Positions 21,388-40,200 are shown, numbered from the stretch's first letter. The stretch is 64,000 nt of DNA from Candidatus Multivoradales bacterium (GCA_965248925.1 CBDFLE010000005.1:192001-256000), one strand, 5' to 3'. The notes: generated by a model from the letters alone, not told the origin. Program-made: numbers and translations.

Positions 21388-21428
21388 TTGACGTTTCTGA
21401 CGCTCTGGCTGTAGCATTGTAGGCGTCA
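21388..21428 (+). promoter_or_regulatory. Sigma70-type promoter with inverted repeat upstream of the TA pair
   Basis: TTGACG (21388-21393), 18 bp, TAGCAT (21412-21417); TGACGC (21398-21403) / GCGTCA (21423-21428) inverted repeat. Confidence 0.5.
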
Positions 21429-22126: not shown

Positions 22127-22808
22127 GAGCCGGCTGATCTCGGTGCCAAACCTCCAGCCTCCCTGCAGCTACGACGGCACGCCCCGGCGTAGCGTGCTTG
22201 GCGCCGGTACAGTTCTCACCCGTGTCCATCAAGACCGCTTCGCGGCGACCGCCTGGAATCCCAAGCCAGCCGACACCCACTGGGGCGGTGGCCGGTTCGA
22301 TGCCACGACCGATGATCCCTACGGCTTCCTCTATGCCGGCAGCGACGATACTTGCGCCGTCGCCGAGGCGCTGCTGCGGGATCTTCCGGTCACTGATTCG
22401 GGCTCGCGGCTGTTGCTACGGAAAGCCCTTGCCGACCGTCGCATTAGTTGGATCGCACCCACCGTAGATCTGCAGCTTGTCGTTCTGCGGGATGGTAAGG
22501 AGTTGGCGGCCGTCGGTCAGGATTCTTGGCTCACCAAGAGCGAGCCGAGAGACTATGCCTTCACCCGCCGCTGGGGCCACCGGATCCGCGCCTGGGCGCC
22601 ATGGTCGCAAGGTTTCATCTGGCGCTCGCGGCTCGAAGAGGCAAGCCTGGCCTACGTTTTCTTTGCCGACCGCTGCCCGGCGGGCGCATTCGGAGAGATC
22701 CTCCAGCCCGGCTTGGAGCCGCCGAATCACAACCGCCTCGACTACGAACCTGGAAAGAGTTACATCTTGAAGTTGTTGGCGGAGTACAACGTCACGGTTT
22801 ATCGATAG
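22119..22808 (+). CDS. RES domain toxin (NAD+-targeting family)
   Basis: GRFD...FLYAG...AVAEALLR...Y..TRRW...GFIWRSR carrying the R-E-S signature. Confidence 0.85.
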   Translation: MAESRLISVPNLQPPCSYDGTPRRSVLGAGTVLTRVHQDRFAATAWNPKPADTHWGGGRFDATTDDPYGFLYAGSDDTCAVAEALLRDLPVTDSGSRLLLRKALADRRISWIAPTVDLQLVVLRDGKELAAVGQDSWLTKSEPRDYAFTRRWGHRIRAWAPWSQGFIWRSRLEEASLAYVFFADRCPAGAFGEILQPGLEPPNHNRLDYEPGKSYILKLLAEYNVTVYR

Positions 22809-25204: not shown

Positions 25205-26792
25205 CGACGATCAGTTCCGCTAGACGGCTGTCGGCGATGAACAGGCGGCCGGCTCCATCGACCGTCAGGTCCACAGGGTTGCGCAGTTCGAGGCCGCCGG
25301 CTAACTGCGGCCCCAAGCTGCGGACGGCTTGGCCATCGGGGCCGTAGATATCGACTCGACGATTGCCCCGATCGAGGACGAAAACATAGCCCAACCCGTC
25401 GACGGCGAGTGCCAACGGGCGTTTCCAATTTCCCCGTGCCACGGTGCCGGTCGGTTGGCCGTTGAGTCCTACCCGCAGAACTTGTTGGCCATCGGCGTCC
25501 AAGATGTAGATGCGGCCGCGATTGTCGCGCGCCAAGTCCACCAGTTGCGGACGGGTGGTGGCGTAGAGTTCTTTCGGCGGGGCATCCTGGCTGGTGAAGT
25601 GAAGTAGGCTGCGGGCGCTCTTTTGCAGCACGAACCAGTCGCCGAAGGGGCCGCGCTCGGCAGCGGCCAGACTGCGCAGGGGAGCGCCGCGACTGGAACC
25701 GGGGTCGGTCAGTTGGACGCGGGCACCGGTGAGTGCTCGCATCAGGGTGTCGCTGAGCACCAACCAGGGCTCGCCGTCAAAGCTCCACCAGGGTCGGTCG
25801 GCACCGCGCACGGAACGAGTCCGCAGCAGTTCGCCAGCGGGGGAAATCACCGCGGCGATGCTCTGGCGGTCGTCGAGTAGGAGGATGCGACCCCGATGGT
25901 CGGCCGCTACACCCGCCGCCGCTCGCAACTCCAAACCTCGAACTGGGAAACTCAGTACCCGGCCAAAGGGATCCTGGCCGGCGAGCGGCCTCAGCACCCG
26001 CCGCTGGATCAAGCCGAGTAGCTGGCGGGCCTGCCAAGCGATGTCCTGCCGCAGCTCCTGCTCGGAGTCGGTGGGCTGATCGGGCGGTTGACTGTCGATC
26101 GCTTGTTGCAAAACTTCACTGGCGGTAAGCCATTCGCCGCTGCGCAGCAAGGCTTGGCCGAGGATCAGCAAGCCGCGGCTGTTCCAAGAACTGGGAGGCT
26201 CGTCCTCTACCGCGCTGAGGGCGGCAACCGCGGCGGCTGTTGGGTCGTCGAGCAGCAGATCGATCTCGGCGGCACGGATCAGGGCTTGTTGGCGAGCGGC
26301 GAGACGGGGATAGCGCTCCTGGCCGAAGAGTAGGGCAACTCGGCGCAAGCGGGTGCGGACCTCTTCGTAGGTGGCGCGAGAAGAGGAGCCGGCGAGCCGT
26401 ATCTCGGCATCGAGCAGGCTGGCCTCGGCAGCTTGCGGCGCCTGGGGATAACTGGTCACCAACCGATCGAGAGCGCCGCGAGTGGCATTCAGATCGCCGA
26501 TCAAGCGATTCAGCTGGGCGCTCTGCAACCAGGCGTGGGGTGCCAGGGGGTCGTCGGCGAAGCGTTCGGTCAGAAGGCTTAGCTCACCTACCGCGGCGGC
26601 CGGATCGCCGGCCTTGGCTAGCCGCGCGGCTTCAGTCCACAGGCGCTGGGCAGCCGCGCTCTGGGCATCGAGAGGGGGCGCGAGCAGCAGGGCGAGCATC
26701 GCCAATCGCGCTAGCCTAGCGCAGAGCCGGCGCAAACTAGCGTGCCCCATGAAAGGCTGGTGATGGTGGAGATTTGGAATTGGCGACTCCAT
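25197..26792 (-). CDS. Exported TPR + NHL beta-propeller protein
   Basis: Signal peptide; BamD-like TPRs (LVTSYPQAPQA); NHL units (PLALAVDGLGYVFVLDRGNRRV, PVDLTVDGAGRLFIADS). Confidence 0.82.
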   Translation of the reverse strand: MESPIPNLHHHQPFMGHASLRRLCARLARLAMLALLLAPPLDAQSAAAQRLWTEAARLAKAGDPAAAVGELSLLTERFADDPLAPHAWLQSAQLNRLIGDLNATRGALDRLVTSYPQAPQAAEASLLDAEIRLAGSSSRATYEEVRTRLRRVALLFGQERYPRLAARQQALIRAAEIDLLLDDPTAAAVAALSAVEDEPPSSWNSRGLLILGQALLRSGEWLTASEVLQQAIDSQPPDQPTDSEQELRQDIAWQARQLLGLIQRRVLRPLAGQDPFGRVLSFPVRGLELRAAAGVAADHRGRILLLDDRQSIAAVISPAGELLRTRSVRGADRPWWSFDGEPWLVLSDTLMRALTGARVQLTDPGSSRGAPLRSLAAAERGPFGDWFVLQKSARSLLHFTSQDAPPKELYATTRPQLVDLARDNRGRIYILDADGQQVLRVGLNGQPTGTVARGNWKRPLALAVDGLGYVFVLDRGNRRVDIYGPDGQAVRSLGPQLAGGLELRNPVDLTVDGAGRLFIADSRLAELIVVD

Positions 26793-26813
26793 CAGCTAGG
26801 TTAGTCGGTGGTG

Positions 26814-26873
26814 GTCGATCACAGCGTCGATCAAGGTGTCGGTCACGGTCAAGATCACGGTCAAGATCACGGT
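26814..26873. repeat. Degenerate 6/12-bp-period tandem repeat
   Basis: GGTCGATCACAGCGTCGATCAAGGTGTCGGTCACGGTCAAGATCACGGTCAAGATCACGG, containing two exact copies of TCACGGTCAAGA. Confidence 0.6.
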
Positions 26874-28924
26874 GCGGCCACGAAGATGCGCTGTGCTGGC
26901 TGGTTGATGTCGATGGTGATTCTCTTGCTGCGTTGCAAGCGGGGCCAATCAAACAAGAACTCGTGCTCACCCGCGGCCAGACGGCGGTCGTGGATAGGCG
27001 TGAAGTCGACCACCTGCCCGTCGATGCTGACTTGGCAGTTGGCCGGCGAGGCGACGATCCGCACCGCATAAGCGACCGGCACCGCTAATTTTTCGTGCTC
27101 ACCGCTGCGCAGCGCGACTTGGTAAGTCTGCCTGAAGAAGAAAGCCTCTGCAACCAGCTCGATGCGGTAGTCGCCGGGAGGCAAGTCGATCCGCTGACGC
27201 TCTGCAGCTGGCCAGCGTTTGCCGGCGACGCGGACCGCGATCGGGAAGTTGGCATCGATAGCGATCACCCCCGCGGGGATAACCTGTCGCAGGGGAAGGT
27301 GCAGCCGGCCGCTGGCTGCTTGACTGTCGTCGAGGTGGTCCAGGTCGAGGACCCAGCTGGCTGGGTGATAGCCGTCGAGCTGGAGTTCAAGTTGGTACTC
27401 GCGGTGGCGCTCGAAAGTGATCTCGGCCGGGGTTAGTTGCTCGCTGGCCACGCCATCGATCAGCAGCCGAGCCCCTGCCGGGGCGGTGGTCACGGTGAGC
27501 AAGCGCTGCGCTGGCGGCGAGGCGTTCCAAGCCGGGGGTAGTTCAGCGCCGAGGACGAAAGTTCGCTCGGCAATCAGTCGCTGCCCATCGCGCACCGCCA
27601 GGCGGATTTCGCTGCCGAGTTCACCGTCGAGTTCGATCTCGGCTGGAGTTACCAAACCACTGTCGACACCGTCGCGCCAGATTGCCGCACCCTCGATCTC
27701 GGAGATCACCGGCAGGCGGTAGGGGCCGGCGGCTTGCTCCGCCGGTGCTGCAGTCGCGGCCAAGCCTGGGTCGACGGTGGCCGCAGTAGTTGGCGTGTCT
27801 GTGGACTTGTTGGTCGGCTCGGCAGAGTCGGTGGCACCGCCGCCGAACCACCACCAAGTGGTGGTCGCACTCATCGCCAATAGCGCCAGGCCCAGCCCCA
27901 CGTTGCGGACCAAGTGGCCGCTGCCGGCGGTTGCACGTGCACGCTCGGCAATCACTTGCGGTTCGTTAGCGGCGCCGATCTCGAGCCCCAGGTCGAGATC
28001 GGCGGGAGGCCGCTGATCGAGAACATGGTGGGTGTCGATGGGTTGGGTCACGAGAATGCTGGCGGACGGGTCGGCGGGCGTTCCGAGTGCTTGCCGCTGT
28101 TGCGCTCCCAGAGCTTCGGCCAAGGCTGCGACCATTTCGCTACAGCTTGAGAAGCGGTCGCTCGGGGCCTTGGCCAGGGCGTGGAGCAAGACCTCGTCGA
28201 CCGGCGAAGGCAGCGCGTGATTCTTCAGCTGCGGCCGCTGCGGCTCTTCGTGGACGATACGGTAGAGCACCGAGGATGGATGCTCGCCAGCGAAGGGCTG
28301 GCTGCCGGTGAGCATCAGGTAGAGGATGACCGCCAGCGAGAATTGATCGGCCCGGCCATTGACTGGCTGTCCGAGGATCTGTTCCGGCGCCATGAATGCC
28401 GGGGTACCCACCGTGCGGCCGGTTTGGGTGAGCTGGGCCGAGCGCAGCTTGGCGACGCCGAAGTCAGTGATCTTGGCGTTGCCGCCTTCGTCAAAGAGGA
28501 TGTTGGCCGGCTTGATATCGCGGTGGACAATGCCTTGATCGTGAGCATAGTCGAGGCCACTGGCGATTTGTTGAGCGGTCTTCAGCACCTCGCTCGCGGG
28601 CATTGGGGCACCGCGCAGGCGTTGGTCGAGGCTGTCTCCCTCGATGTATTCCATGGCGATGAAGTAGCTGCCATCGCCGCTGCCGACATCGTAGATGGTC
28701 ACGATGTTGGGATGCGACAACCTGCCGGCGGCGCGAAACTCTTGCTCGAACCGGGCCTCGATCTCAGCTCGCTCGGGGGTGGAGAACGCGGCGTCAAGGC
28801 GCAGTTCCTTGATCGCTATCGTACGACCAATCAGCGGATCGTGAGCTTGGTAAACCGTGCCCATGCCGCCACGTCCCAACACACCATCGGTTTTGAACCG
28901 GCCAAATCGCTTGCTCTCGGTCAC
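26867..28924 (-). CDS. Hanks-type Ser/Thr protein kinase with TM helix and extracytoplasmic PEGA domains
   Basis: LGRGGMGTVY, AIK, HPNIV, HRDIKPAN, DFG, GTPAFMAPEQ; TM VGLGLALLAMSATTTWWWF; PEGA-like repeats. Confidence 0.92.
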   Translation of the reverse strand: MTESKRFGRFKTDGVLGRGGMGTVYQAHDPLIGRTIAIKELRLDAAFSTPERAEIEARFEQEFRAAGRLSHPNIVTIYDVGSGDGSYFIAMEYIEGDSLDQRLRGAPMPASEVLKTAQQIASGLDYAHDQGIVHRDIKPANILFDEGGNAKITDFGVAKLRSAQLTQTGRTVGTPAFMAPEQILGQPVNGRADQFSLAVILYLMLTGSQPFAGEHPSSVLYRIVHEEPQRPQLKNHALPSPVDEVLLHALAKAPSDRFSSCSEMVAALAEALGAQQRQALGTPADPSASILVTQPIDTHHVLDQRPPADLDLGLEIGAANEPQVIAERARATAGSGHLVRNVGLGLALLAMSATTTWWWFGGGATDSAEPTNKSTDTPTTAATVDPGLAATAAPAEQAAGPYRLPVISEIEGAAIWRDGVDSGLVTPAEIELDGELGSEIRLAVRDGQRLIAERTFVLGAELPPAWNASPPAQRLLTVTTAPAGARLLIDGVASEQLTPAEITFERHREYQLELQLDGYHPASWVLDLDHLDDSQAASGRLHLPLRQVIPAGVIAIDANFPIAVRVAGKRWPAAERQRIDLPPGDYRIELVAEAFFFRQTYQVALRSGEHEKLAVPVAYAVRIVASPANCQVSIDGQVVDFTPIHDRRLAAGEHEFLFDWPRLQRSKRITIDINQPAQRIFVAAP

Positions 28925-29505
28925 TCGGGAATCACTCCGCAGGGTCTGCGCCTGAAGATTGGCGCCGGATGAGAGGCTGATTGTAGCGCGGGTGGGGTGG
29001 GTGCGGCGTCAATTCGATCGACTCGAAGCCAGCTTCGGCGGCCCACCGCTGGGTGAGTAAGAATGGGCTTGCAAAGTTGAATATTTCAATAGCTGCTGCG
29101 CCAGAACGTAGGACCTACTTGCTGCCGTAGCGGCGACTCCGAGCGGAAGTGATTGGCCAATGAATAGCTCCCTTGGGACTAGCAATTGCCCACGGATCTG
29201 GCACAATGCCCAGGCAGAGAGAGCTAAATTTTCTTTTTTCGAGCTTCTGGGGAATCCTCCCACGAGCCAGCGTCTGGCAGCGTCTTCAGATCTATGCGGT
29301 AGATCTATCCGGGGTCCGAAGGCGCGCAACACTGCGGACCCGCCTTGCCCGCTCGCCTTGATGGCACTTGGCAGCGGTGTGGGGAGAGACAAGTTCACTG
29401 ACCGACCTCGTAGTCGGCGTGCGGCTTTTTGGTGTTCGTCCGAGCCGAGCTGTAGTTGGCAGCCGGGCAACGCTGGAACCACGCGCTTCGGGGAGGAGAT
29501 CGACC

Positions 29506-32500
29506 ATGAATCGTAGACTGCTGGTGCCGCTGGCTCTGTCCCTATTGCTCACCTTGATGTTCGCTAGCGCTGCTTCGGCGGTAGATTTTCTGGTCTATCT
29601 GGATCTTGACGATGATGCGGCCAGTGGCTGCGCGGTGGCTACTGCCGACGGTCCTTTCCCCGGCGTCGAAGAGATTCTCGTGACCACCGTAGAGACTGGC
29701 CAGGTGATTGCCTTGGCGCGCCAGACCTGCGTCGACCCGGGAACTGATACTTTTTCGGCGCCGGTCGCCATCGGCGCCCCCTTTGCCCCCCCATGGCCGG
29801 TTGGCTCCGGCCTAGGCACCTTCGGCAGCGATGTGGTCGAGACTTTTTATCCGCTAGACGCGGGCTGTGATGTGGTGCGCTTGGGTTATGCCTCGGCGAT
29901 CGCGGGAGCAAGCGGCGACGCTCTGCTGACCGTCGATGGCAGTGGCGGCGGCTCGCCGATCCGGCTCGATTGCCGCGGTGTGTTAGAGATCCCCACCCTG
30001 TCGCAGTGGGCGTTGATGTTGCTGGCCGCCTTGCTGAGCATCGCCGCCTGGCGCTTGCTGCGGCGCCATCCGTCGAGCACCGCCGCCCTGGTCTTGGTAG
30101 CGGTGCTAATGAGCGCTTTCGCCGGTGTGGTGTGGGCGATGGTGATGCTCGACGGCGACCCCGGTGATTGGGTGGGTCTCGACGCCACCTTGGCCGACGA
30201 TGCCACTGGCGACGCCCCGACCAGCGGCGACATTCTGGCCACGTTCGCCTCGCAGGATCTCGATCAAGGGGTGATTTTCTTCCGCTTCGACGTCACCACC
30301 AACAGTTCACCGATCGCGGTGGACGATGTCTTTGCCACCGACGAAGACACATTGCTGATGGGCGACGTCTTGGCCGCCAACCCGACCACTGCCGATTCCG
30401 ATCCCGACGGCGACCCGCTGAGCGTGGTCGAGGTCGATGGCAACGGCGCTGATGTCGGGGTGCAGATCACCCTGAGCTCGGGCGCTCTGCTGACTTTGAA
30501 CGCCAATGGCACCTTCGCCTACGACCCCAACGGTGCCTTCGAATCGATGGGCGATGCCGATAGCGCCCAAGACGTTTTCGACTACACCATCACCGACGGC
30601 AATGGTGGCATCGATACGGCGACAGTGACGATTGATGTTGCCGGCGTCAACGACTGCCCAGCGGCGGTGGACGACGCGGTGTCAACCGGCGAGAGCACGG
30701 TGTTGAACGGCGATGTGCTGGTGGCCAACCCGACCACGCCGGACAGCGATCCGGAGGGCGATACGCTGATCGTGACCGAGGTCGACGGCAATGCCGCGGA
30801 TGTCGGCGTACAGGTCACCTTGGCTTCCGGAGCCTTGCTGACGGTCAACGCCAACGGCACCTTTACCTACGATCCGAACGGCGCTTTCGACAGCCTGGGT
30901 GATGGCGAGAGCGACACTGACAGCTTCACTTACACCGTCGACGACGGCTCGGGCACCTGCTCGGCGACGGCGACGGTGACGGTGACCATCAACGGCAACA
31001 ACTCCTGCCCGACGGCGGTGGACGACGCGGTCAGCACCGACGAGGACTCGTTGCTTAACGGTAATGTTCTAGTCGCCAACCCGACCACGACCGACTCCGA
31101 TCCCGATGGTGATCCGCTGACGGTGATCGCGGTCAACGGCAACCTGGCCAACGTCGGGGTGCAGATCACTCTCGCTTCGGGGGCTCTGCTGACGGTCAAC
31201 GCCAATGGCACCTTCAGCTACGACCCCAACGGCGCCTTCAACAGCCTCGGCGTCGGCGACAGCGATAGCGATAGCTTCACCTACACCGTCGACGACGGCT
31301 CAGGCACCTGCTCGGAGACGGCAACGGTGACGGTCACCATCTCCGGCGTCAACGACTGCCCGACGGCGGTGGACGATGCGGTGTCGACCGACGAAGACAC
31401 GGTGCTCAACGGTGATGTCACCACCGCCAACCCGACCACTGCCGACAGTGATCCCGAAGGCGACACCCTGGTGGTGACGGCGGTCAATGGCAATGGCGCC
31501 AACGTCGGCGTGCAAATCGCTTTGGGCGCCGGCTTGGTGACGGTCAATGCCAACGGCACCTTCAGTTTCGACCCCAACGGTGGTTTCGATTCTCTGGGTG
31601 TGGGCGAGATGGCGACTGAGATGTTCACCTACACCCTCGATGACGGTTCGGGCACCTGCTCGGAGACCGCCACCGTGACGGTGACCATCATCGGTGTCAA
31701 CGACCTGCCGATGGTGGCGGGGGAGACCTTCGACGATGTGGCCAACACCTTGCTACAGGTGGCGGCGAGCCAGACCTCGACCCCCTCGGTCTTCGTCATG
31801 GGTTCGCTGTTGTCCAACGACAGCGATGGCGATGGACCTAGCCCGCTGACCGCTTCTCTCAACACGGCGACTGTCGGGGCGGTGGTGACGGTGGCCGCGG
31901 ACGGCACCTTCACTTACCTGCCGCCAGCCGGGATGACCGCTAGCGACTCCTTCACCTACGACGTCAGCGATGGCTCAGGATCGACCACGGCGACGGTAAC
32001 TATCACCTTCTTCAGCCGGGTTTGGTACGTCGACAACACGGCGGCGGCGGCGGGCCTGGGCCGCTCGGCCGATCCCTTTGACACCCTGGTAGAGGCTGAA
32101 ACCGCGCACGGCGCCAACGACATGATCTGCGTCCGCACCGGCGATGGCACTACCACCGGCCACGATGCCGGTATCGAGATCAGCTTCTCGGGCGTGTTGC
32201 TGCACGGCGAGCACCATGGCTGCGAGCCCAATGTTGGGCTCAACAGCAACGCCGCTCCCACTTCGCTAGTGCCGCCGAGCGTCGGCAATCATCCGCTGAT
32301 CGATCATTCCGCGGGTGGTGTCGGTGTTCAGGTAAGTGCCGACACCGGCGACCTCACCGGCATCTTCATCCGTGGTCTCAACCTCGATGGTGATGACAAC
32401 GCTGTCGACATCGAGGCCAGCGGCGCCAATCAAGTCGATGTCGGAGTGCAGAACAACACCCTTCGCGGCGCAGGCGGCGACGGCATCGACGTCAACCACA

Positions 32501-35500
32501 GCAGTAGCGCCGGCGACAGCCGCGTGAGGATTCTCAACAACGTCCTGGCAGCCACTGGCAATGGTGCCGATATTCGCACTACCGCTGGCGGCCTGGACGT
32601 GGTGTTCAACAACAACAGCGACATCACCGGCGCCAAGGGGGTGTTCTTCGATGGCTCGGGCGGCGGTACCCTGACGGTCAGCGGCTTCTCCGGCAACTCG
32701 GTCCATCAGGACACCAGCGGCAACGGTATCGAGATGGACACCGTGGTGTTCGATGCCGACGCCGGTACCAACGGCGGCGGCGATGCTGACTTCACCGGCG
32801 ATACGGTGGCCGGCGGTGACACTTCTGTCGGTACTGCCGGCGATGGCGTTGGCGGCGCGGGGATCCTCTTGGCCGGGGTTACCGGCGATCTCAGCTTCGG
32901 TGATCTCGACGTGGAGGCCGATGGCGGTGTCGGTCTGCAAGCGATGGCCGCGGCACCGCTCAACGCCGCGGCTGGCACCGGCTTCCGCCTGACCACCGGC
33001 GCGGGAACCAGCTTGACCGCTACTGGCGGGCCGGCCCTCGACCTCGATCCGCTCACCGCCGCGCTGACGATCAGCGCGCTGACCTCGACCAACAGCGCTA
33101 CCCAAGGCGTCTCACTTAACGATGTCAGCGGCTCGGTGACAATTACCGGCGGTTCGATCGTCAACGCGGCCGCCATTGCCTTCTTGGTCGACGGCGCCGC
33201 GCCGACGGTGAGCTACGGTGGTTCGATGACCCTCGGCGACACCACCGCCGTGTCGGTGACCAACACCACCGGTGGCTCGGTGACCGTCGACAATGGCATT
33301 TTGAGTACCGATGGTGGCAACTTCGCCGCCATCCAGGCCACCAATACTGATGGCGCGGTCAACGTCACCAACATGGGCGTCAGCCACTCGAATGGCCGGG
33401 TGATCGTGTTCGACGATGTTGATGGCGGTGCCAGCTTCAGCGGTACGACGATCTCGACCACCAACCACCACGGGGTCAGCGTGCAGAACAGCGCCGGCGC
33501 CCTGACTTTCCCCAACATAGTGATCGCCGTCGGCACCCCGGCGCCGGTCGATGCGGTCTTCCTCAACGCCAACGGCACGGCGACGATCAACTTCTCACGA
33601 ATCGCGGTCAACACTAACGGCGCTGGCGTGCGCGGCCTGGTGGCGACCAGTTCGGGTACCGTCAACGTCACCGACAACACCAGCTTGATTGCCGCAACCG
33701 GCGGTCCGGCGGTGGTGATCAATCCGACTACCGTGGGTATGGTCTTCGCCAGCGTCAGCTCAAGCAACAGCAATGGGGTCGGCGCGAGCTTCGTCGGCGT
33801 GAGCGGCAGCTTTGTCGCCAGCGGTGGCTCGATCAATGGCGCTGCTGGCACAGCTTTCGAGGTCGGTAACGGGACCGCCAACTCGGGTAGCAACGGCACC
33901 ATCACCTACGCCGGAGGGATCACCAACGCCGCCGGGCGGGCAGCAGTGGTGCAGGATCGCACGGGCGGAACGGTGACCATTTCTGGCGCTGTTGTCGACA
34001 CTGGGGCCACCAACAGCGGTATCTTGGTCGACGATAACAATTCCGGCAACCCGCTGGTGCGTTTCACCGGCACGGTTGATATCACCAACACTTCCGGCAG
34101 CGCGCTGACGGTGAGCGACAACACCGGCGGCCGGGTGCAGTTCGCGGATCTCGACATCGTCAACGACACGGCGGATCAGGTAGGCCTGTCGGCCACCAAC
34201 AATGGGAGCGGGGGGCGCCTCGATGTCGATACCGGCACTGTCGATAGCGGCTCTGCTACTGCCATCGACATCGACAACACGGTGCTCGGTAACAGCGGTA
34301 ACACGACCGCTGGACTGACCCTGGTCAGGGTCACCTCAGACGAGGCCAGTGCCAACGAAGGGATCAACTTGGCCTTCACTACCGGCGCCTTGACGGTGAT
34401 CGGAGACGGTGCAGCGGGTGCTGGATTGGCGGCCAACAACGGCTCTGGCGGGACGATCAGCAATAAAACCGGCGATTCAGTGGTGCTGAACTCGGTCACC
34501 AACGTGTCGCTGAACTACATGAACATCACCAACGGGCTGGGTCATGGCATCAACGGCACCGCCGTCAACGGTTTTGTCCTAACCCGCAGTAACGTCACTA
34601 ACCATGCCGACACCAATGGCGAAGCGCCACTGTTCTTCCGCGGCTTGACCGGCACGGCGGCAGCCAATCCGGAGTTGGAGGGGGGCAGCAACCAGACATT
34701 GATCGCCAACTCGCTGATCGCCGAGGGCGACGAGGACAACATCCAGATCAAGAATGAGACCGGCACCCTGGCCCGGCTGGTGGTCCGCGACAGCACCATC
34801 GGCAGTACGACCTTCGGCGATCGCAACGAGAACGATGGCATCAACTTTGAGGGCCTCAGCTCCGGCGGGGGTAACGCGGTGATGAATCTGCGGGTGGAGA
34901 ATTGCAACTTCATCGGCAACGCTGGCGACCACATCAACCCGTTCCACAACGGCGCCAGCGGTTCGATGGACATCGACATATTTGGCAGCGATTTCCGTGG
35001 CAGCGCGTCGCACGGGTCCGGTGTCGGTGGCGGCATCACCATCGCCGCCAACGATGCCTCGGTCGGTTCGGGCAACAATGTCACCTATGTGGTCGACAAC
35101 AACGATTTCCGCGATGTCGTGCTGGTGGCCATCGACACCAACCTGGTGATCTCCAGCGGTACCATGGCGATGTCGGGGACCATCAACAACAACCGCATCG
35201 GTACTAGCGGCGTGTTCGGCTCAGGGTCTTCGACCGGTGTCGGCATTCGGGCGCGGTCGAATAGGGCGGGTACTCACACCGTGGCGATCACCAATAACAC
35301 CATTCGCAACTGGGTCAACGGTGGCGGCATCACGATCCAGCAGCGCGACGGCAACGGCACCCTCAATGCTACCGTGACCGGCAACACTGAGGTACACGAC
35401 GCGGGTGGGTTCCCCTTCGGCAGCGGTCTGCAAGTCGAGTCTGGAGCGGTGGCTGCCGACATGGGCACCGTGTGCATCGATATCGGGGGTGCCGGCGGGC

Positions 35501-35760
35501 TGGCCAACACCTTGACGGAGCCGAATGCATTCGACCCGGCCATTCTGGTGTTGCAGAACTTCGCGACCACGATGAGATTCCCGGCCTACGCCGGAGCCGC
35601 GACCAACCCGGCCGCGCACACCGACCTCAATACCTTCCTTGGCGGTCGCAATACATTGAGCGCCAATGGAGTAGCGGCGGATGCGGTGGCACCCACTTTC
35701 CAGGGCGCCATCGCATCCGGAGTCTCGGGCGGCATGCCGAATACCTGTCCACAGCCTTGA
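29506..35760 (+). CDS. Giant surface protein/adhesin (2084 aa): signal peptide, internal IPTL-CTERM-like segment, tandem Ig/cadherin-like repeats, long beta-helix region
   Basis: SD GGAGGAG before ATG 29506; IPTLSQWALMLLAALL; P.AVDD...NANGTF.YDPNGAF...DSFTYTVDDG repeats; VWYVDN...PF.TL beta-helix entry; Gly/Thr/Asn/Asp-rich. Confidence 0.9.
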   Translation: MNRRLLVPLALSLLLTLMFASAASAVDFLVYLDLDDDAASGCAVATADGPFPGVEEILVTTVETGQVIALARQTCVDPGTDTFSAPVAIGAPFAPPWPVGSGLGTFGSDVVETFYPLDAGCDVVRLGYASAIAGASGDALLTVDGSGGGSPIRLDCRGVLEIPTLSQWALMLLAALLSIAAWRLLRRHPSSTAALVLVAVLMSAFAGVVWAMVMLDGDPGDWVGLDATLADDATGDAPTSGDILATFASQDLDQGVIFFRFDVTTNSSPIAVDDVFATDEDTLLMGDVLAANPTTADSDPDGDPLSVVEVDGNGADVGVQITLSSGALLTLNANGTFAYDPNGAFESMGDADSAQDVFDYTITDGNGGIDTATVTIDVAGVNDCPAAVDDAVSTGESTVLNGDVLVANPTTPDSDPEGDTLIVTEVDGNAADVGVQVTLASGALLTVNANGTFTYDPNGAFDSLGDGESDTDSFTYTVDDGSGTCSATATVTVTINGNNSCPTAVDDAVSTDEDSLLNGNVLVANPTTTDSDPDGDPLTVIAVNGNLANVGVQITLASGALLTVNANGTFSYDPNGAFNSLGVGDSDSDSFTYTVDDGSGTCSETATVTVTISGVNDCPTAVDDAVSTDEDTVLNGDVTTANPTTADSDPEGDTLVVTAVNGNGANVGVQIALGAGLVTVNANGTFSFDPNGGFDSLGVGEMATEMFTYTLDDGSGTCSETATVTVTIIGVNDLPMVAGETFDDVANTLLQVAASQTSTPSVFVMGSLLSNDSDGDGPSPLTASLNTATVGAVVTVAADGTFTYLPPAGMTASDSFTYDVSDGSGSTTATVTITFFSRVWYVDNTAAAAGLGRSADPFDTLVEAETAHGANDMICVRTGDGTTTGHDAGIEISFSGVLLHGEHHGCEPNVGLNSNAAPTSLVPPSVGNHPLIDHSAGGVGVQVSADTGDLTGIFIRGLNLDGDDNAVDIEASGANQVDVGVQNNTLRGAGGDGIDVNHSSSAGDSRVRILNNVLAATGNGADIRTTAGGLDVVFNNNSDITGAKGVFFDGSGGGTLTVSGFSGNSVHQDTSGNGIEMDTVVFDADAGTNGGGDADFTGDTVAGGDTSVGTAGDGVGGAGILLAGVTGDLSFGDLDVEADGGVGLQAMAAAPLNAAAGTGFRLTTGAGTSLTATGGPALDLDPLTAALTISALTSTNSATQGVSLNDVSGSVTITGGSIVNAAAIAFLVDGAAPTVSYGGSMTLGDTTAVSVTNTTGGSVTVDNGILSTDGGNFAAIQATNTDGAVNVTNMGVSHSNGRVIVFDDVDGGASFSGTTISTTNHHGVSVQNSAGALTFPNIVIAVGTPAPVDAVFLNANGTATINFSRIAVNTNGAGVRGLVATSSGTVNVTDNTSLIAATGGPAVVINPTTVGMVFASVSSSNSNGVGASFVGVSGSFVASGGSINGAAGTAFEVGNGTANSGSNGTITYAGGITNAAGRAAVVQDRTGGTVTISGAVVDTGATNSGILVDDNNSGNPLVRFTGTVDITNTSGSALTVSDNTGGRVQFADLDIVNDTADQVGLSATNNGSGGRLDVDTGTVDSGSATAIDIDNTVLGNSGNTTAGLTLVRVTSDEASANEGINLAFTTGALTVIGDGAAGAGLAANNGSGGTISNKTGDSVVLNSVTNVSLNYMNITNGLGHGINGTAVNGFVLTRSNVTNHADTNGEAPLFFRGLTGTAAANPELEGGSNQTLIANSLIAEGDEDNIQIKNETGTLARLVVRDSTIGSTTFGDRNENDGINFEGLSSGGGNAVMNLRVENCNFIGNAGDHINPFHNGASGSMDIDIFGSDFRGSASHGSGVGGGITIAANDASVGSGNNVTYVVDNNDFRDVVLVAIDTNLVISSGTMAMSGTINNNRIGTSGVFGSGSSTGVGIRARSNRAGTHTVAITNNTIRNWVNGGGITIQQRDGNGTLNATVTGNTEVHDAGGFPFGSGLQVESGAVAADMGTVCIDIGGAGGLANTLTEPNAFDPAILVLQNFATTMRFPAYAGAATNPAAHTDLNTFLGGRNTLSANGVAADAVAPTFQGAIASGVSGGMPNTCPQP
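30301..32010 (+). repeat. Five tandem 348-351 bp intragenic repeats (Ig/cadherin-like, VCBS/Big_9-like)
   Basis: Units start at about 30301, 30649, 31000, 31351 and 31699; units 2-4 are very similar at DNA level and carry a Cys pair (NxCP...GSGTCS). Confidence 0.85.
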
Positions 35761-35810
35761 TTGAGAGAGCTAGCAGGGACCTTGTAGACAACTTAACGGA
35801 AGGAGGCACA

Positions 35811-36323
35811 ATGTCAGAACCTTTCCTCGCCGAAGTTCGTATCGTCGGCTTCAATTTCGCGCCCCGTGGCTGGGCGTTCTGTGATGGGCAGATCTTGCCC
35901 ATCAACCAGAACCAGAGTCTGTATTCGCTCCTCGGCACGACCTATGGCGGTGACGGACGTACCAGCTTCGCGCTGCCCGACCTGCGGGGACGGACGCCGA
36001 TTCACGTCGGCCGTAGCAATGGTGGCGACTCTCATCGACTCGGCCAGAAGAGCGGTGAGGAGACCCACACGCTGAGTGCCGCGGAGATGCCGCAGCACAA
36101 GCACGTTGCGAGAGCTAATGACACCGCGGGGGATAACCCAATCCCGACCACCCATTCACTGGCCCGGGCCAACAACCTCTACCGGGATGCCAGTAACTTG
36201 ACCGAGCTGCGTTCCGGCACTGTCACCAACGTTGGTGGCAGCCAGGCGCACGACAACATGCAGCCGTACATCGCGGTGAACTTCTGTATCGCACTACAGG
36301 GCCTGTTCCCGTCGCGGAACTAA
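35811..36323 (+). CDS. Phage tail collar domain protein (MdpB-like), paralog 1
   Basis: SD GGAGG; MSEPFLAEVRIVGFNFAPRGWAFCDGQ...GTTYGGDGRTSFALPDLRGR, HxH, HDNMQPY...FPSRN. Confidence 0.92.
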   Translation: MSEPFLAEVRIVGFNFAPRGWAFCDGQILPINQNQSLYSLLGTTYGGDGRTSFALPDLRGRTPIHVGRSNGGDSHRLGQKSGEETHTLSAAEMPQHKHVARANDTAGDNPIPTTHSLARANNLYRDASNLTELRSGTVTNVGGSQAHDNMQPYIAVNFCIALQGLFPSRN

Positions 36324-36338
36324 GGAAAAGGAGACACG

Positions 36339-36857
36339 ATGTCCGAACCTTTTGTAGGTGAGATCCGCATGTTCGCGGGCAACTTCGCGCCCCGCGGCTG
36401 GGCTTTTTGCGACGGTCAGCTGCTGGCGGTGTCCCAGAACGATGCCTTGTTCAGCCTGCTCGGAACGATTTACGGCGGCGACGGCCGGACGACTTTTGGC
36501 TTACCTGAGATGCGCGGCCGGATCCCTATCCATGCCGGCTCTGGTCCGGGCTTGAGTCCACGGCGACTCGGAGCCAAGAGCGGTGTGGAGAAGGTCACCT
36601 TGACCGTCAACCAGCTGCCCTCTCATACCCACCCACTCAATGTGTCTCAGGACCTGGCCGATCAGGCCAGTCCCAGCGGCCGGCTGCCGGGCAATTCGCC
36701 CTCGATCGACCTGTACCGCGAAGAAGCGTCGACCCAGGATATCAACTCGGGCTCGGTACAGAACATAGGCGGCAGCCGCAGCCACAGCAATTTCATGCCC
36801 TACCTCTGTATCCACTTCATCATCGCTCTGTTCGGGATCTACCCGTCGCGGCACTAG
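36339..36857 (+). CDS. Phage tail collar domain protein (MdpB-like), paralog 2
   Basis: MSEPFVGEIRMFAGNFAPRGWAFCDGQLL...GGDGRTTFGLP, LPSHTH, HSNFMPY...YPSRH. Confidence 0.92.
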   Translation: MSEPFVGEIRMFAGNFAPRGWAFCDGQLLAVSQNDALFSLLGTIYGGDGRTTFGLPEMRGRIPIHAGSGPGLSPRRLGAKSGVEKVTLTVNQLPSHTHPLNVSQDLADQASPSGRLPGNSPSIDLYREEASTQDINSGSVQNIGGSRSHSNFMPYLCIHFIIALFGIYPSRH

Positions 36858-36866
36858 GAGACCATC

Positions 36867-37388
36867 ATGTCGGAACCTTTCGTCGCGGAAATTCGCATTT
36901 TCGCCGGTAACTTCGCTCCCCGTGGCTGGGCCTTCTGCGACGGTCAGCTGCTGCCCGCCGCTCAGAACACGGCGTTGTTCAGCTTGATCGGAACCACCTA
37001 TGGCGGCGATGGGCGGACCACAACCGCGTTGCCCAATCTGAAAGGGCGAGCACCCATGCATCCCGGCCGTGGTCCTGGGCTGACCAGCAAGCGTCTGGGC
37101 CAGCGGGGAGGGACCGAGATGGTCACCCTGTCCGAAGCACAGATGCCACAGCACGACCACACCATCAAAGCGACGGCCAATCCTGGAAATCTGGGGATCC
37201 CGAGCAATCAACGGTCACTCGCCCGTACCCAGCCCGGATTTGCTTGGCAGACAGCGAACCCGGACGTCGATCTTGCGGCAGCGGCACTGCCCAATGCCGG
37301 TGGCAGCCAACCGCACAACAACCTGCAGCCCTTCCTGACGATGAACTTCATCATCGCCCTGGTCGGTCTGTATCCGTCGCGCGGCTGA
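36867..37388 (+). CDS. Phage tail collar domain protein (MdpB-like), paralog 3
   Basis: MSEPFVAEIRIFAGNFAPRGWAFCDGQLL...GGDGRTTTALP, MPQHDH, HNNLQPF...YPSRG. Confidence 0.92.
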   Translation: MSEPFVAEIRIFAGNFAPRGWAFCDGQLLPAAQNTALFSLIGTTYGGDGRTTTALPNLKGRAPMHPGRGPGLTSKRLGQRGGTEMVTLSEAQMPQHDHTIKATANPGNLGIPSNQRSLARTQPGFAWQTANPDVDLAAAALPNAGGSQPHNNLQPFLTMNFIIALVGLYPSRG

Positions 37389-37399
37389 GCATTGCTCCG

Positions 37400-37429
37400 C
37401 GGCCTGGTTCCAACTACGGGACCGGGCCG
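37400..37429 (+). other. Intra-operon stem-loop after the collar genes
   Basis: CGGCCTGGTTCC-AACTAC-GGGACCGGGCCG, a 12-bp stem with G-U pairs and no U-tract. Confidence 0.5.
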
Positions 37430-37461
37430 TGTAGCGCTACCTACTTAATAAGGGAAGAAGC

Positions 37462-37971
37462 ATGCCGCCCGCCGGGTTCAGCTTACGTCCGATCAGCGAC
37501 GCCGACCAGGACTTCCTCCACCGACTCTATGCCAGCACCCGCGAGGAGGAGTTGGCGGCGGTGCCTTGGACGAAGGAATACAAAAAGGACTTCCTGCGCG
37601 GTCAATTCGAAGCCCAGCACCAGCACTACATGAGCTACTTCACCGACGCCTCCTTCGATTTGGTGTTGGCGGGTGAAGAACCCGTCGGTCGGCTCTACTT
37701 GGAGGAGCGTCTTGCCGAGATCCGCATCATCGACATCGCCTTGCTGCCGGAGCATCGACAGCGGGGCTTGGGGCGAGTGTTGTTGGTGGAGGTGCTGGAG
37801 CGCGGAGCCACGGCTGGCAAGGCGGTGCGCATCCACGTCGAAACCAACAACCCGGCGATGCGGCTCTATTTGCGGCTCGGCTTTAGTCGGATCGAGGACC
37901 AGGGGCCGTACCACCTGATGGAATGGACGCCTACCGCTAGCGGGGTCAAAGCCGCGGCGGGGGCGGATTAG
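37462..37971 (+). CDS. GNAT family N-acetyltransferase
   Basis: IDIALLPEHRQRGLG acetyl-CoA motif A; NNPAMRLYLRLGF motif B. Confidence 0.92.
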   Translation: MPPAGFSLRPISDADQDFLHRLYASTREEELAAVPWTKEYKKDFLRGQFEAQHQHYMSYFTDASFDLVLAGEEPVGRLYLEERLAEIRIIDIALLPEHRQRGLGRVLLVEVLERGATAGKAVRIHVETNNPAMRLYLRLGFSRIEDQGPYHLMEWTPTASGVKAAAGAD

Positions 37972-37974
37972 AGA

Positions 37975-38280
37975 ATGATCGACAAGCTGAACAAGGAAGA
38001 TTTCGAGGCCCATCTCAAGAGCCGCGTGACGGTGCGGTTGGAAGATCGTGGTAGCTGTGAGCTGCTTCTGGTGGAAGTGATTCACATCGGCGCCAAGCAA
38101 GCGCGGGGAGCTGCTCGCCACGCTTTTTCGGTACTCTTCAGCGGCGCTGAGGATTTTCATCTAGAGCAAATGATCTACCGTGTCGAGCATGGAGAGCTAG
38201 GCGAGATGGACCTGTTTCTGGTACCCCTGGGACCTGACCCTGCAACCGGCAAGCTGCTTTTCGAGGCGGTTTTCACCTGA
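37975..38280 (+). CDS. DUF6916-like small protein
   Basis: F..HL...LLLVEV...FSVLFSG...LEQMIYRVEHGELGEMDLFLVPLG...FEAVFT. Confidence 0.82.
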   Translation: MIDKLNKEDFEAHLKSRVTVRLEDRGSCELLLVEVIHIGAKQARGAARHAFSVLFSGAEDFHLEQMIYRVEHGELGEMDLFLVPLGPDPATGKLLFEAVFT

Positions 38281-38317
38281 TCGAGATCACCTCATAGAAC
38301 AAAGAAGGGAATCAAGA

Positions 38318-38782
38318 ATGAGTGACGAAACCCAAGAGCCCAAGGGAGAAAACGTCAGCTTGGAGGCCTGTGCCGCGGCTTGTGACGAGGCTGCCAAAGC
38401 CGCCGACGAGCGCGAGGAAGAGACCGTCGAGTGGGCTGAGCTGATCGAGAGTCCGATCGCCGAGATGACCCTCGACACTTTCAAGGGCCGGATCGGTGAG
38501 AAATTCTCAATCCAGATTTCTAGCAAGAAGCTGGAATTGGAGCTGGTCGAAGCGCACTCAATGGCGCCGACGGCAGACCTTGGCAAGAGTGCTCCGAAGG
38601 GCCGTGAGCATTTTGCGATCACCTTTCAGGAGCGCGACCCGACGATCTCTCTGTCCGCCGGCATCTACCGGTTGGAGCATGAAGAACTCGATGCGTTCGA
38701 ACTCTACCTCGAAGAGATCACGGCTCCTAATGCCGATGGCAGTGAGGCGGAGGATCAGCGTTACGAGGCGGTGTTCTCCTAA
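38318..38782 (+). CDS. Second DUF6916-like protein with acidic N-terminal extension
   Basis: Same pattern: TFKGRIGEKF...LELVE...FAITF...GIYRLEHEEL..FELYL...YEAVFS. Confidence 0.75.
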   Translation: MSDETQEPKGENVSLEACAAACDEAAKAADEREEETVEWAELIESPIAEMTLDTFKGRIGEKFSIQISSKKLELELVEAHSMAPTADLGKSAPKGREHFAITFQERDPTISLSAGIYRLEHEELDAFELYLEEITAPNADGSEAEDQRYEAVFS

Positions 38783-38804
38783 GATTCACTACCCATTGAA
38801 TTGC

Positions 38805-39260
38805 CTAGCGGCCGGGGGTGGCGCCCGACCAAGAAGTGATGTCGCCGGACTCGAAACCATCGGTGAAGATCGCCAGCTGCGGGTTGGCGCCACCGATGTG
38901 GTCGAGCGCGACCCCCTCCCAGACACTTGGCAGGGTATCGCCGATCCCTAGAACCCAGTTGGGGGAGGTGCCGGTGAGCCTGGCTGCTACCCAGTCTTCG
39001 GCGGCCGAGCCGGTGAGGAGCCCGGAGCCGCGGATCTTGCCAGGTGAGTTGGTGTCGCCGGTGATCCAAATCAGATGGGTTCCTGGGCCGACAGTGCTGC
39101 CGGGGGTGCCGCGTAGTTCGAGGTATTCGTGCAGTTGGCCGCCGCCGAGTGGGGTAAAGGGCAGCTCGTTGATGTAAATCTGCGATTGCACCGGTTGGCT
39201 GACGAGAGCCAAGAGGTGCAACAGGACTAGAGGTAGGAGGTGCTTGATTTTTTCTCGCAT
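38805..39260 (-). CDS. Small secreted protein (lamin-tail-like start) with C-terminal IFTDGFESGD tag
   Basis: Signal peptide; QIYINE...EYLELRG; ends IFTDGFESGDITSWSGATPGR. Confidence 0.7.
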   Translation of the reverse strand: MREKIKHLLPLVLLHLLALVSQPVQSQIYINELPFTPLGGGQLHEYLELRGTPGSTVGPGTHLIWITGDTNSPGKIRGSGLLTGSAAEDWVAARLTGTSPNWVLGIGDTLPSVWEGVALDHIGGANPQLAIFTDGFESGDITSWSGATPGR

Positions 39261-39378
39261 GGATCTGCCTCGCTGAGATTTGAACGGTGGCCGGAAAAGG
39301 TGTTCTTCTGACCTGTAAAGCGAGAACTATTTGGCCGACCCCCTCATCAGAGGCGACGAAGTTGCGGAGATTCCTCCG

Positions 39379-40200
39379 TTGATCGCGTACTACCGCCTGT
39401 CGGGCGGCGGCAACGACTTTCTGGCCCTGGTTGAGCCGGAGGTGCTGCCCGCAAAGTGCGATATTGCCGCCTGGTGCCGACGGGGACTGTCATTGGGCGC
39501 CGACGGCGTCTTGGTGCTCGATCGACGGGGCGAGGTGCTGCGGGTGCGCCATTTCAATGCTGACGGTGGAGCGGCGGGCCTGTGTCTGAACGGCACTCGC
39601 TGTGCCGCCCGTTTGGCGTTGGAGTTGGGATGGGCTCCCGAGAATGCTGCCTTTCCCATCACCACCGCGGTGGGCGTGCTCAGCGCTGCCTCGGTGGGCC
39701 AGGACATGATGCAGATCGAGCTGCCGGTTGCCGATCGGCCGCCGCAGCGGTGCTCGCTGGAAGTCCGAGGAGTCGTGCATGCTGGCTGGGAGGTTCTGGT
39801 TGGCGTGCCGCATCTGCTGCTGTGGGTCGAGGGCGGGCTGGCCGCTCTGGAGCTGAGGGAGTTGGGGCCGGCCTTGCGCTATCATCCGCACTTTCCAGAT
39901 GGCACCAATGTCAATTGGTTAGAGGGATGGCCGGGCGGCTTCGCTATCCGCACCTGGGAGCGCGGGGTCGAGGCCGAGACCCTGGCCTGTGGCACTGGAG
40001 TTCTCGCGGCCACGGCCGCCGGTATTGCCGCGGGGCGGTTTGATTTCCCTCTGCGGGTCGATACCCGAGGTGGCTTTGTATTCTCGGTGCAAGGAGAGAG
40101 CAGCGGAGGTAGGGTTCGCGCTTGGTCCTTGACCGGTGATGCCAGAATCGTTGCCCGCGGCGAGATTCTGGCGGGTGCTCTTGCTCAGCCAGGCATTTGA
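39379..40200 (+). CDS. dapF: Diaminopimelate epimerase
   Basis: GGGNDF, GADG, NADG..AGLCLNGTRC, GVPH, GTNVN, TWERGVEAETLACGTG. Start uncertain (ORF open from 39331). Confidence 0.9.
   Translation: MIAYYRLSGGGNDFLALVEPEVLPAKCDIAAWCRRGLSLGADGVLVLDRRGEVLRVRHFNADGGAAGLCLNGTRCAARLALELGWAPENAAFPITTAVGVLSAASVGQDMMQIELPVADRPPQRCSLEVRGVVHAGWEVLVGVPHLLLWVEGGLAALELRELGPALRYHPHFPDGTNVNWLEGWPGGFAIRTWERGVEAETLACGTGVLAATAAGIAAGRFDFPLRVDTRGGFVFSVQGESSGGRVRAWSLTGDARIVARGEILAGALAQPGI

Follow-up and report, generated by a model that had tools for sequence, protein, structure and literature searches.

The 64,000-nucleotide stretch analysed here as a whole (the window; Candidatus Multivoradales bacterium, GCA_965248925.1, CBDFLE010000005.1:192001-256000) carries, at positions 29506-38782 counted from its first letter, a cassette of seven genes: a giant surface protein, three paralogous Collar-domain proteins (col1, col2 and col3), a GNAT acetyltransferase and two DUF6916 proteins. 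As far as sequence comparison goes, this gene set is one copy of a widespread, non-viral cassette present in many phyla. We give a probability of roughly one half to the reading that it encodes a cell-envelope binding knob of three different chains, which would be modified by the GNAT/DUF6916 pair and act with a giant protein sorted by the exosortase XrtH.

The mechanism that we propose, in which 1:1:1 assembly, metal binding, the acetylation target, collar export, contact with the giant and the ligand are inferred, would run as follows. Col1, col2 and col3 would each give one module of a single knob of the gp12/gp10 type. The HxH pair of each module would most likely hold a shared metal ion, and the roughly 40 lineage-specific residues after HxH would form the ligand face, most likely for a sugar polymer. 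The GNAT and the DUF6916 protein, a candidate split beta-barrel, would work as one unit that most likely acetylates a cassette protein in the cytoplasm; as a first guess, the target would be the conserved Ser/Ala N-termini of the collar chains, with DUF6916 as the docking module. The giant would be exported by the Sec route, cut or sorted by XrtH at its mid-chain IPTL signal and stay anchored in the envelope, where the knob would act with it as a recognition or adhesion device.

The evidence that these genes belong together comes from their inheritance. A scan with the GNAT alignment against one genome per GTDB species yielded 575 relatives, and the best 80 loci were analysed. Beyond Acidobacteriota, these come from Chloroflexota, Cyanobacteria, Gammaproteobacteria, Gemmatimonadota, Planctomycetota, Bacteroidia, Calditrichia, Myxococcota and others. 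At least three collar genes were observed in 58 of them, one or two in 4 and none in 18, and DUF6916 was present in 73. When only the 49 loci with at least 4 kb on either side of the GNAT gene are counted, the corresponding numbers are 43, 1 and 5 for the collars and 48 for DUF6916; a relative of the giant was found in 37, with its C-terminal region included in 23 of these. In the loci of 20 relatives, 20 kb each, the set giant-col1-col2-col3-GNAT-DUF6916 lay within 10 kb in 16 cases. There the usual order was giant-col1-col2-col3-GNAT, and DUF6916 occurred in either orientation. In most loci the giant gene is a direct neighbour that points the same way, with two different gene orders represented, and the identity of the cassette scaffold across phyla is 50–83%.

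Among relatives, the cassette is all-or-none. DUF6916 was detected in 51 out of 61 relatives; none of the other 10 carries the GNAT, and 8 of them have no collars, the remaining two showing a collar trace (a match below the cut-off in one, and an odd single match in the other, whose genome is 81% complete). Even when the parts lie apart, three tandem collars (with a fourth match in one case) and one specific, high-scoring GNAT were found in all 5 of 5 relatives; in one such genome (G046), the GNAT and DUF6916 genes lie 97 kb from the collars. In an even sample of 401 Acidobacteriota, the GNAT was found in 32 genomes and collars in 52, and all 32 are within the 52. The GNAT threshold in this sample (E 1e-30) is near the scores of one family, so that the threshold may account for some of the GNAT-negative calls. 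Among the genomes checked that have collars but no GNAT match, four have DUF6916 adjoining the collars and two have no DUF6916, one of these two being a closed genome. Additionally, four genomes with a single collar match have no DUF6916, one of these matches being a single-chain form (described below). The sequence-only reading, an earlier model-made note on this DNA, had treated the genes as one system, and across genomes they indeed travel together, linked as well as unlinked.

All three collar proteins match the Pfam family Collar (PF07484) far above its cut-off of 24 bits, with E values of 1.5e-28, 3.2e-29 and 5.8e-28 and 99.0, 101.1 and 97.1 bits for col1, col2 and col3, respectively. 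They share 48–55% identity with one another. PHROGs tail-protein families match all three over residues 7–165, and in the case of col2 a sequence search of the PDB returned the T4 gp12 entries 1ocy, 1pdi and 5iv5, and also 8kec. Matches to the Gp10_C head family (PF21939) are weak, with 26.8 bits for col1, 22.2 bits for col3 (cut-off 27) and none for col2. The proteins start at the collar domain (residues 7–8), and the fibre shaft is absent. The features that had been described from the sequence, namely the motifs QHKH, SHTH and QHDH, the H.N..P...[FY]PSR ends and the signal-less MSEPF N-termini, are all visible in the translations. Across relatives, the N-termini are conserved as M-[S/A/G]-[E/D/Q]-P-[F/Y], and H96 and H98 are invariant in 49 of 49 rows of each class. 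Column conservation within each class is 0.88–0.89 over residues 1–65 and 0.73–0.85 over the last 30 residues, whereas the approximately 40 residues after HxH (99–141) are variable, at 0.39–0.42.

The three genes keep a fixed order. Gene position coincides with paralogue class in 55, 55 and 50 of 58 triplets, and in a FastTree phylogeny of 177 collar proteins 5, 5 and 7 changes are enough to explain the positional labels, as compared with about 49 in shuffles. In loci with 6 or 9 collar genes, multiples of three are kept. Two viral contigs, L138 (5,456 bp) and L140, bear nine and six tandem collar genes, arranged as three and two back-to-back triplets, and at a Lysobacterales locus (L080) two triplets flank the GNAT gene. 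On this phylogenetic pattern, the fixed-order collar paralogy is ancient. The three products probably fold into one three-part knob, which would have a 1:1:1 composition. The module itself may have been domesticated from a phage. The idea of a heterotrimer had been put forward in the sequence-only reading; fixed order with positional clades, multiples of three, three-module single chains and a virophage precedent speak for it, and the 1:1:1 assembly as such stays inferred. Complex prediction for col1, col2 and col3 with a DUF6916 partner gave scores of 0.21 and 0.15 against a mark of 0.32, and, in a run without controls, these scores do not bear on binding either way.

A search for longer relatives of col1 returned 1,439 proteins at E up to 1e-20, and the best 120 were examined. 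In 74 of them the three-module arrangement is circularly permuted, in 40 there are three whole modules, and 6 have other forms. Permuted chains begin with a signal peptide and the C-terminal ~30 residues of a module, continue with two complete modules and the N-terminal ~98 residues of a module, and finish in an anchor. Pfam recognized three Collar stretches in all five single chains that were checked, and such chains carry HxH in each module. Circular permutation can be understood only if the three modules join up as one ring-like body, and a model of one of these proteins (P0271; 51 aligned sequences) agrees with that. It forms a single compact body with a predicted local distance difference test score (pLDDT) of 87.0 and a predicted template modelling score (pTM) of 0.80. 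The pLDDT drops below 50 in the first four residues and in the three inter-module linkers, and the terminal helices (signal peptide and anchor) have lower values, mostly 50–76.

Many of the same 120 proteins have export or anchor features: 70 have a signal-peptide-like N-terminus, 52 have a PEP-like motif near the C-terminal end (by regular expression), and Pfam PEP-CTERM was matched in 19. In the protein P0376, three collar modules lie between an HYR and a Big_9/cadherin domain, the latter belonging to the immunoglobulin (Ig) families of the window's giant. The protein P0358 is a col1-col2 fusion with 60% identity. The tip after HxH takes up about 13 residues in single-chain forms. In the one genome of a single-chain carrier that was searched (G413), there was no GNAT or DUF6916 match. 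The source names of P0271, P0270 and P0314 read only "microcystin-dependent protein" or "tail fiber protein". We know of no published study on single-chain three-Collar proteins, and no search was aimed at them.

The second part of the cassette is the enzyme with its small companion. The GNAT protein matches PF00583 (E 1.5e-11, 45 bits, cut-off 20.7), its acetyl-CoA motif reads RQRGLG, and G102 and G104 are invariant in 17 of 17 rows. Among solved structures, those closest to it in sequence are protein N-acetyltransferases: 6wqb/6wqc and 7wx5, then Naa50 and RimI. The structure 6WQB is reportedly cited in a paper on a Legionella acetyltransferase effector. An assignment to RimI itself (TIGR01575) was rejected, at 36.5 bits against an equivalog cut-off of 86.4. 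Both of the "DUF6916-like" proteins of the sequence-only reading turned out to be true members of PF21880, with 83.9 bits for copy 1 and 62.5 bits for copy 2 (cut-off 27).

Five clusters of natural GNAT-DUF6916 fusions were found (P0080, P0151, P0152, P0154 and P0155), 260–270 amino acids long and each with both Pfam domains. They are 51–89% identical to P0080 and cover 98–100% of it, and P0151 was found on 7 contigs from three sources. In the window, the GNAT and DUF6916 copy 1 are in the same frame with only the TAG stop and one codon between them, and the same arrangement of GNAT, stop and DUF6916 in one frame occurs in two other Acidobacteriota genomes. Following the common reasoning from gene fusions, these natural fusions indicate that GNAT and DUF6916 work together, and the partnership is in this sense supported. 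The collar N-termini would lose the initiator methionine and expose a small residue, which fits N-terminal acetylation without proving it; the collars may be among the proteins modified by this GNAT.

The fold of DUF6916 was less informative. The model of copy 1 comprises a short helix and a six-stranded barrel (pLDDT 90.4, pTM 0.81). VIA-align placed it closest to MotI, YcgR and PP4397, which are PilZ/YcgR-N split barrels (Z 8.0–8.4, root-mean-square deviation 2.4–2.6 Å over 76–89 residues), a best Z of 7–8 being typical for models without a clear match. Foldseek returned nothing at E up to 0.001 (best 0.068), with weak rows that mix Hcp, tail-tube, neck and PilZ proteins. The fold therefore gives no function. 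The best E of the DUF6916 profile against PDB sequences was 0.41, an ESM Atlas search recovered DUF6916 clusters only, and a search for longer DUF6916 relatives gave no match, which is weak evidence. The family itself is very large, with 10,083 cluster representatives at E up to 0.001; most of these are proteins that stand alone and measure about 100 amino acids.

The giant begins with a Sec-type signal peptide, followed by a conserved N-domain, a mid-chain IPTL signal, a second hydrophobic helix and five Big_9/cadherin-like repeats. The IPTL signal lies at amino acids 162–187, includes a transmembrane helix and two arginines, and scores 31.4 bits with TIGR04174 (cut-off 20.5). With the "midcut-by-XrtH" model NF033207, the giant reaches 38.1 bits, below the cut-off of 45, with the mid-chain position of the signal being the same. 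A mid-chain IPTL signal recurs in open reading frames (ORFs) for large proteins of at least 800 amino acids in 18 out of 50 loci. The same genome encodes the exosortase XrtH (TIGR04177, 114.6 bits, cut-off 86) and an XrtH-associated membrane protein (37.3, cut-off 35). Their genes adjoin each other beside pyrR (genome G000, contig C6, 4,786,000-4,787,200, locus L136). By its sorting signal, and with XrtH in the genome, the giant is a predicted substrate of the IPTL-CTERM/XrtH type.

It had been described earlier as an Ig/beta-helix protein. The Ig part of this description holds, given the five Big_9/cadherin-like stretches, but for the beta-helix part neither Pfam nor a PDB sequence search of the C-terminal region offered anything. 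This region, of about 1,150–1,185 amino acids, matches no Pfam family and had 0 matches among PDB sequences; one orthologue has a weak Beta_helix match (E 0.0081). The part conserved in orthologues spans approximately amino acids 750–2050.

With regard to the export of the collars, clues come from other loci. DUF6916 paralogues with a twin-arginine translocation (Tat) signal occur at L069, L070, L087, L106, L126, L130 and L132 and among the protein clusters P0001, P0013, P0066 and P0132. A 250-amino-acid protein of no known family, with an invariant RR twin-arginine signal, was found in 14 out of 100 loci and never together with a second DUF6916 (alignment A7). Its gene sits between col3 and the GNAT gene (for example L036:10780-11556, minus strand, and 13 other loci). 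Comparison of this protein with DUF6916 by hhalign was weak (probability 5.6%, E 0.0069 over 52 columns). The acidic extension of the window's DUF6916 copy 2 is common to a few relatives. DUF6916 might serve as a chaperone or exporter of the collars, as the sequence-only reading had supposed.

Several observations weigh against the proposed three-chain envelope knob. The residues that tell the collar classes apart are few (3, 2 and 2), and no column is at least 90% conserved within each class and yet different between classes. With so few class-diagnostic residues, sequence alone does not prove an obligate mixed trimer, and class-specific residues were discarded as a test of it, being too few to argue from. 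The single chains are mostly 41–54% identical to col1 (two outliers 61–63%) and have very short tips; on these alignments they are cousins of the collars, not the same proteins. Neither the three collars nor the two DUF6916 proteins of the window have an export signal, no relative of the 250-amino-acid Tat protein was found in this genome, and in 66 of the 100 loci neither that protein nor a second DUF6916 was seen. A giant relative was not detectable in 12 of the 49 well-flanked loci, and the closed genome G253 has three collar matches and no DUF6916. Finally, in a cyanobacterial (Symploca) metagenome-assembled genome (L099:12629-20452, plus strand), the triplet is directly followed by an ORF of at least 2,608 amino acids, running off the locus, which has weak SpvB, RHS-repeat and DUF6443 matches in place of an Ig/repeat giant.

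The few class-diagnostic residues would suit an alternative in which the collars form three separate homotrimers, a small set of lectin-like knobs that differ in specificity. Homotrimers are the usual form of phage fibre tips, T4 gp12 among them, and HxH is kept in all three chains, so each could form its own metal site. We nevertheless consider it unlikely, in view of the strict one-of-each content and fixed order across phyla, the copy numbers in multiples of three, and the natural single chains with exactly three modules, many of them permuted so that the ends meet within one module. The single chain P0271 models as one body, and the virophage DSLV2 offers a precedent for a mixed trimer (PMC12724248). 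A comparably low likelihood is assigned to a triplet, GNAT and DUF6916 that act in the cytoplasm, for example as a metal-containing regulatory or enzymatic complex, with the giant being only a frequent neighbour. Such a complex would account for the lack of signal peptides in the collars, the GNAT and both local DUF6916 proteins and for the loci without a giant relative; a GNAT also needs acetyl-CoA and hence works in the cytoplasm. It sits badly with the Tat-signal DUF6916 paralogues, with single-chain collar relatives that bear signal peptides and PEP-CTERM anchors, with the joining of collar modules to Ig-like surface domains in P0376, and with a giant gene that is adjacent and co-directional in most loci in two gene orders.

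The Symploca protein raises the question of whether the cassette could be an accessory of a secreted toxin or bacteriocin system in which the knob would direct a large exported protein to other cells. Phages and tailocins use the fibre-tip fold for targeting, and the tip loops are variable; however, the SpvB and RHS matches are below or just at the Pfam cut-offs, the large partner usually carries Ig repeats plus a long repeat region and gave no match to a toxin family, the locus clusters contain no conserved immunity-like gene, and the scaffold is unusually conserved across phyla. This appears quite unlikely to us. Very unlikely is that GNAT and DUF6916 form a self-standing toxin-antitoxin-like or resistance pair travelling with the collars. 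GNAT toxins do exist, the pairing is tight (48 of 49 loci), and the pair can lie far from the collars, as in G046. Stable GNAT-DUF6916 fusions, on the other hand, are at odds with a toxin whose antidote is labile, no GNAT without collars was seen in the genomes tested, and DUF6916 adjoins collars in four genomes that have no GNAT match at E 1e-30. There is no PADLOC match, and the neighbours of the GNAT gene are Collar and DUF6916 genes, not a small antitoxin of the RHH/DUF1778 type.

The least probable alternative, to which we give almost no weight, is that the collars serve as spare fibres for a prophage or contractile injection system whose genes lie in another part of the genome. PHROGs does place all three in tail-protein families, and the genome has one sheath and two baseplate-J matches (G000 contig C5, ~1,882,700-1,900,400 and 2,075,300), which point to a contractile tail-like locus on the same contig, about 1.65 Mb away from the window. 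Yet a sheath match is missing from 17 of the 51 DUF6916-positive relatives, including G041 and G050, whose genomes are single contigs, and no phage family was found in the scanned flanks. In this 8.0-Mb genome there are exactly three Collar and two DUF6916 matches, every one in the cassette. Full-length viral relatives of the collars, among the top matches, are at most 50% identical, as compared with 50–83% among cassette orthologues, and of 68 viral loci, many with three or four tandem collars, 2 have a GNAT and none has DUF6916. The position of the sequence-only reading that these are not fibres of a prophage or an extracellular contractile injection system is borne out by the sheath-free relatives and by the confinement of the Collar genes to the cassette.

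A three-chain knob acting in the envelope together with the giant could be part of a broader scheme, which we regard as doubtful. In it, DUF6916 would be a universal docking module that, paired with the GNAT or fused to it, presents the folded, metal-stapled knob for acetylation and, when equipped with a Tat signal or other N-terminal extension, exports the knob by piggyback, which would then be mounted on the giant adhesin sorted by the exosortase. If this were true, it would represent an assembly line not described before, by which bacteria in many phyla equip their surface fibres with a receptor-binding head of the phage type. Collar proteins labelled MdpB/COG4675 are common in bacterial genomes and have no assigned function. 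From this locus and its relatives comes a hypothesis open to bench tests, namely a three-chain complex with a dedicated acetyltransferase plus adaptor and an envelope partner. Several independent comparisons feed into it, which concern fusions, permuted single chains, export-signal variants and all-or-none inheritance. If correct, it would mean that bacteria of many phyla have put a phage receptor-binding head to new use on their own surface, and that the exosortase pathway, and possibly Tat export, has a new type of client.

The genes of the cassette are listed in the table below.

Features of the cassette (nucleotide positions in the window)
Feature	Position	Strand	Description
Giant surface protein	29506-35760	+	2084 amino acids; ATG behind a GGAGGAG stretch
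col1, Collar paralogue 1	35811-36323	+	170 amino acids; HxH is QHKH at H96/H98; collar domain and gp10/gp12-like head
col2, Collar paralogue 2	36339-36857	+	172 amino acids; HxH is SHTH
col3, Collar paralogue 3	36867-37388	+	173 amino acids; HxH is QHDH
GNAT acetyltransferase	37462-37971	+	169 amino acids; RxxGxG acetyl-CoA motif intact; TAG stop at 37969-37971
DUF6916 copy 1	37975-38280	+	101 amino acids; small six-stranded beta-barrel (model)
DUF6916 copy 2	38318-38782	+	154 amino acids; ~49-residue acidic extension without a Tat motif, then DUF6916 domain

The seven co-oriented genes with gaps of 3–73 bp that had been reported for this interval were all recovered as ORFs on the plus strand at their coordinates, with intergenic gaps of 50, 15, 9, 73, 3 and 37 bp, in order. 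A scan of 28800-39500 for promoters and terminators gave 1 promoter-like and 10 terminator-like sites, not above shuffles, and is uninformative on operon structure. The stretch is present in four DNA sequencing runs, all from one sample, and no RNA run with it is listed. PADLOC-DB 2.0, queried with 8 proteins at E up to 0.01, matched 0 families, and no cassette protein corresponds to a known defence model.

The ORFs scanned at 12.5–51.6 kb of the window are ordinary chromosomal genes (Ser/Thr kinase, PEGA/PDZ, TPR and RES-domain proteins, transporters, an amidase and a DegT aminotransferase). No phage family was observed among them, in agreement with the earlier statement that phage genes are missing nearby. 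Upstream of the cassette, at 22901-28924 on the minus strand, there is a divergent trio that encodes a PEGA+PDZ protein of 767 amino acids, a TPR/NHL protein of 531 and a Ser/Thr kinase with PEGA of 685. A kinase cluster recurs in 13 out of 100 related loci, which is probably lineage synteny. Further away (21428-22808, plus strand), a 229-amino-acid RES-domain protein (PF08808, E 1.3e-16) overlaps the end of a family-less 232-amino-acid ORF, and the two look like a RES-type toxin-antitoxin pair. On the other side, a convergent ORF of 151 amino acids with a signal-peptide-like start (38805-39260, minus strand) has no Pfam, NCBIfam or PADLOC match.

In the literature searched, which largely leaves out subscription journals and supplements, no paper on the cassette was found and DUF6916 is not mentioned. 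Likewise, the portions available to us of the literature on the tail collar domain, microcystin-dependent protein and COG4675 contained no description of this set. Several known systems can nonetheless be compared with it. The cassette shares the collar domain and the HxH pair with T4 gp12/gp10 (1OCY, 1PDI, 5IV5), the similarity of the head being weak. In gp12, the HxH pair binds a metal on the three-fold axis of the trimer. The cassette differs from the T4 proteins in having no fibre shaft or virion context, and in its three genes as against one homotrimer.

In terms of export, the nearest analogue is the Tat "hitchhiker" route for folded complexes, known from E. coli HybO/HybC and DmsA/DmsB. 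The likeness lies in folded subunits without a signal that are encoded beside a twin-arginine partner, here the Tat-signal DUF6916 or the 250-amino-acid protein of other loci; the difference is that the window has no Tat-signal component at all. Proteins of the P0271, P0270 and P0314 type have the same module, three per unit, as the cassette, but they are one polypeptide, often permuted, with their own export and exosortase signals.

Collar proteins have been noted in cellular genomes before. RhiB of the Rhizobium rhiABC(D) genes is a Collar-domain protein with no assigned function, and RhiA and RhiC are without the domain (PMC13133039). The label "MdpB, microcystin-dependent protein" is given to COG4675 in a soil metaproteome table (PMC5579227). 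In the available portion of the former source, no triplet, GNAT or DUF6916 is described for RhiABC, and with the Collar domain in RhiB alone it was ruled out as the same system.

The closest parallel is viral. In the DSLV2 virophage report (J Virol 2025, PMC12724248), three consecutive collar proteins co-purify in a band of ~55 kDa, they form positional clades and have a variable "head patch" after the collar domain, and the tripartite complex is reported to bind Synechococcus cells. Many of the viral contigs that we collected (L161-L195) have three or four collar genes ~690 bp apart, without GNAT or DUF6916, and these arrays may be of the virophage or phage tripartite type. As described there, the DSLV2 genes adjoin capsid genes and are without a GNAT, DUF6916 or giant, whereas the cassette is chromosomal. 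What the two have in common are three consecutive small collar genes that fall into positional clades, and a variable stretch, after HxH in the cassette, that matches the viral head patch.

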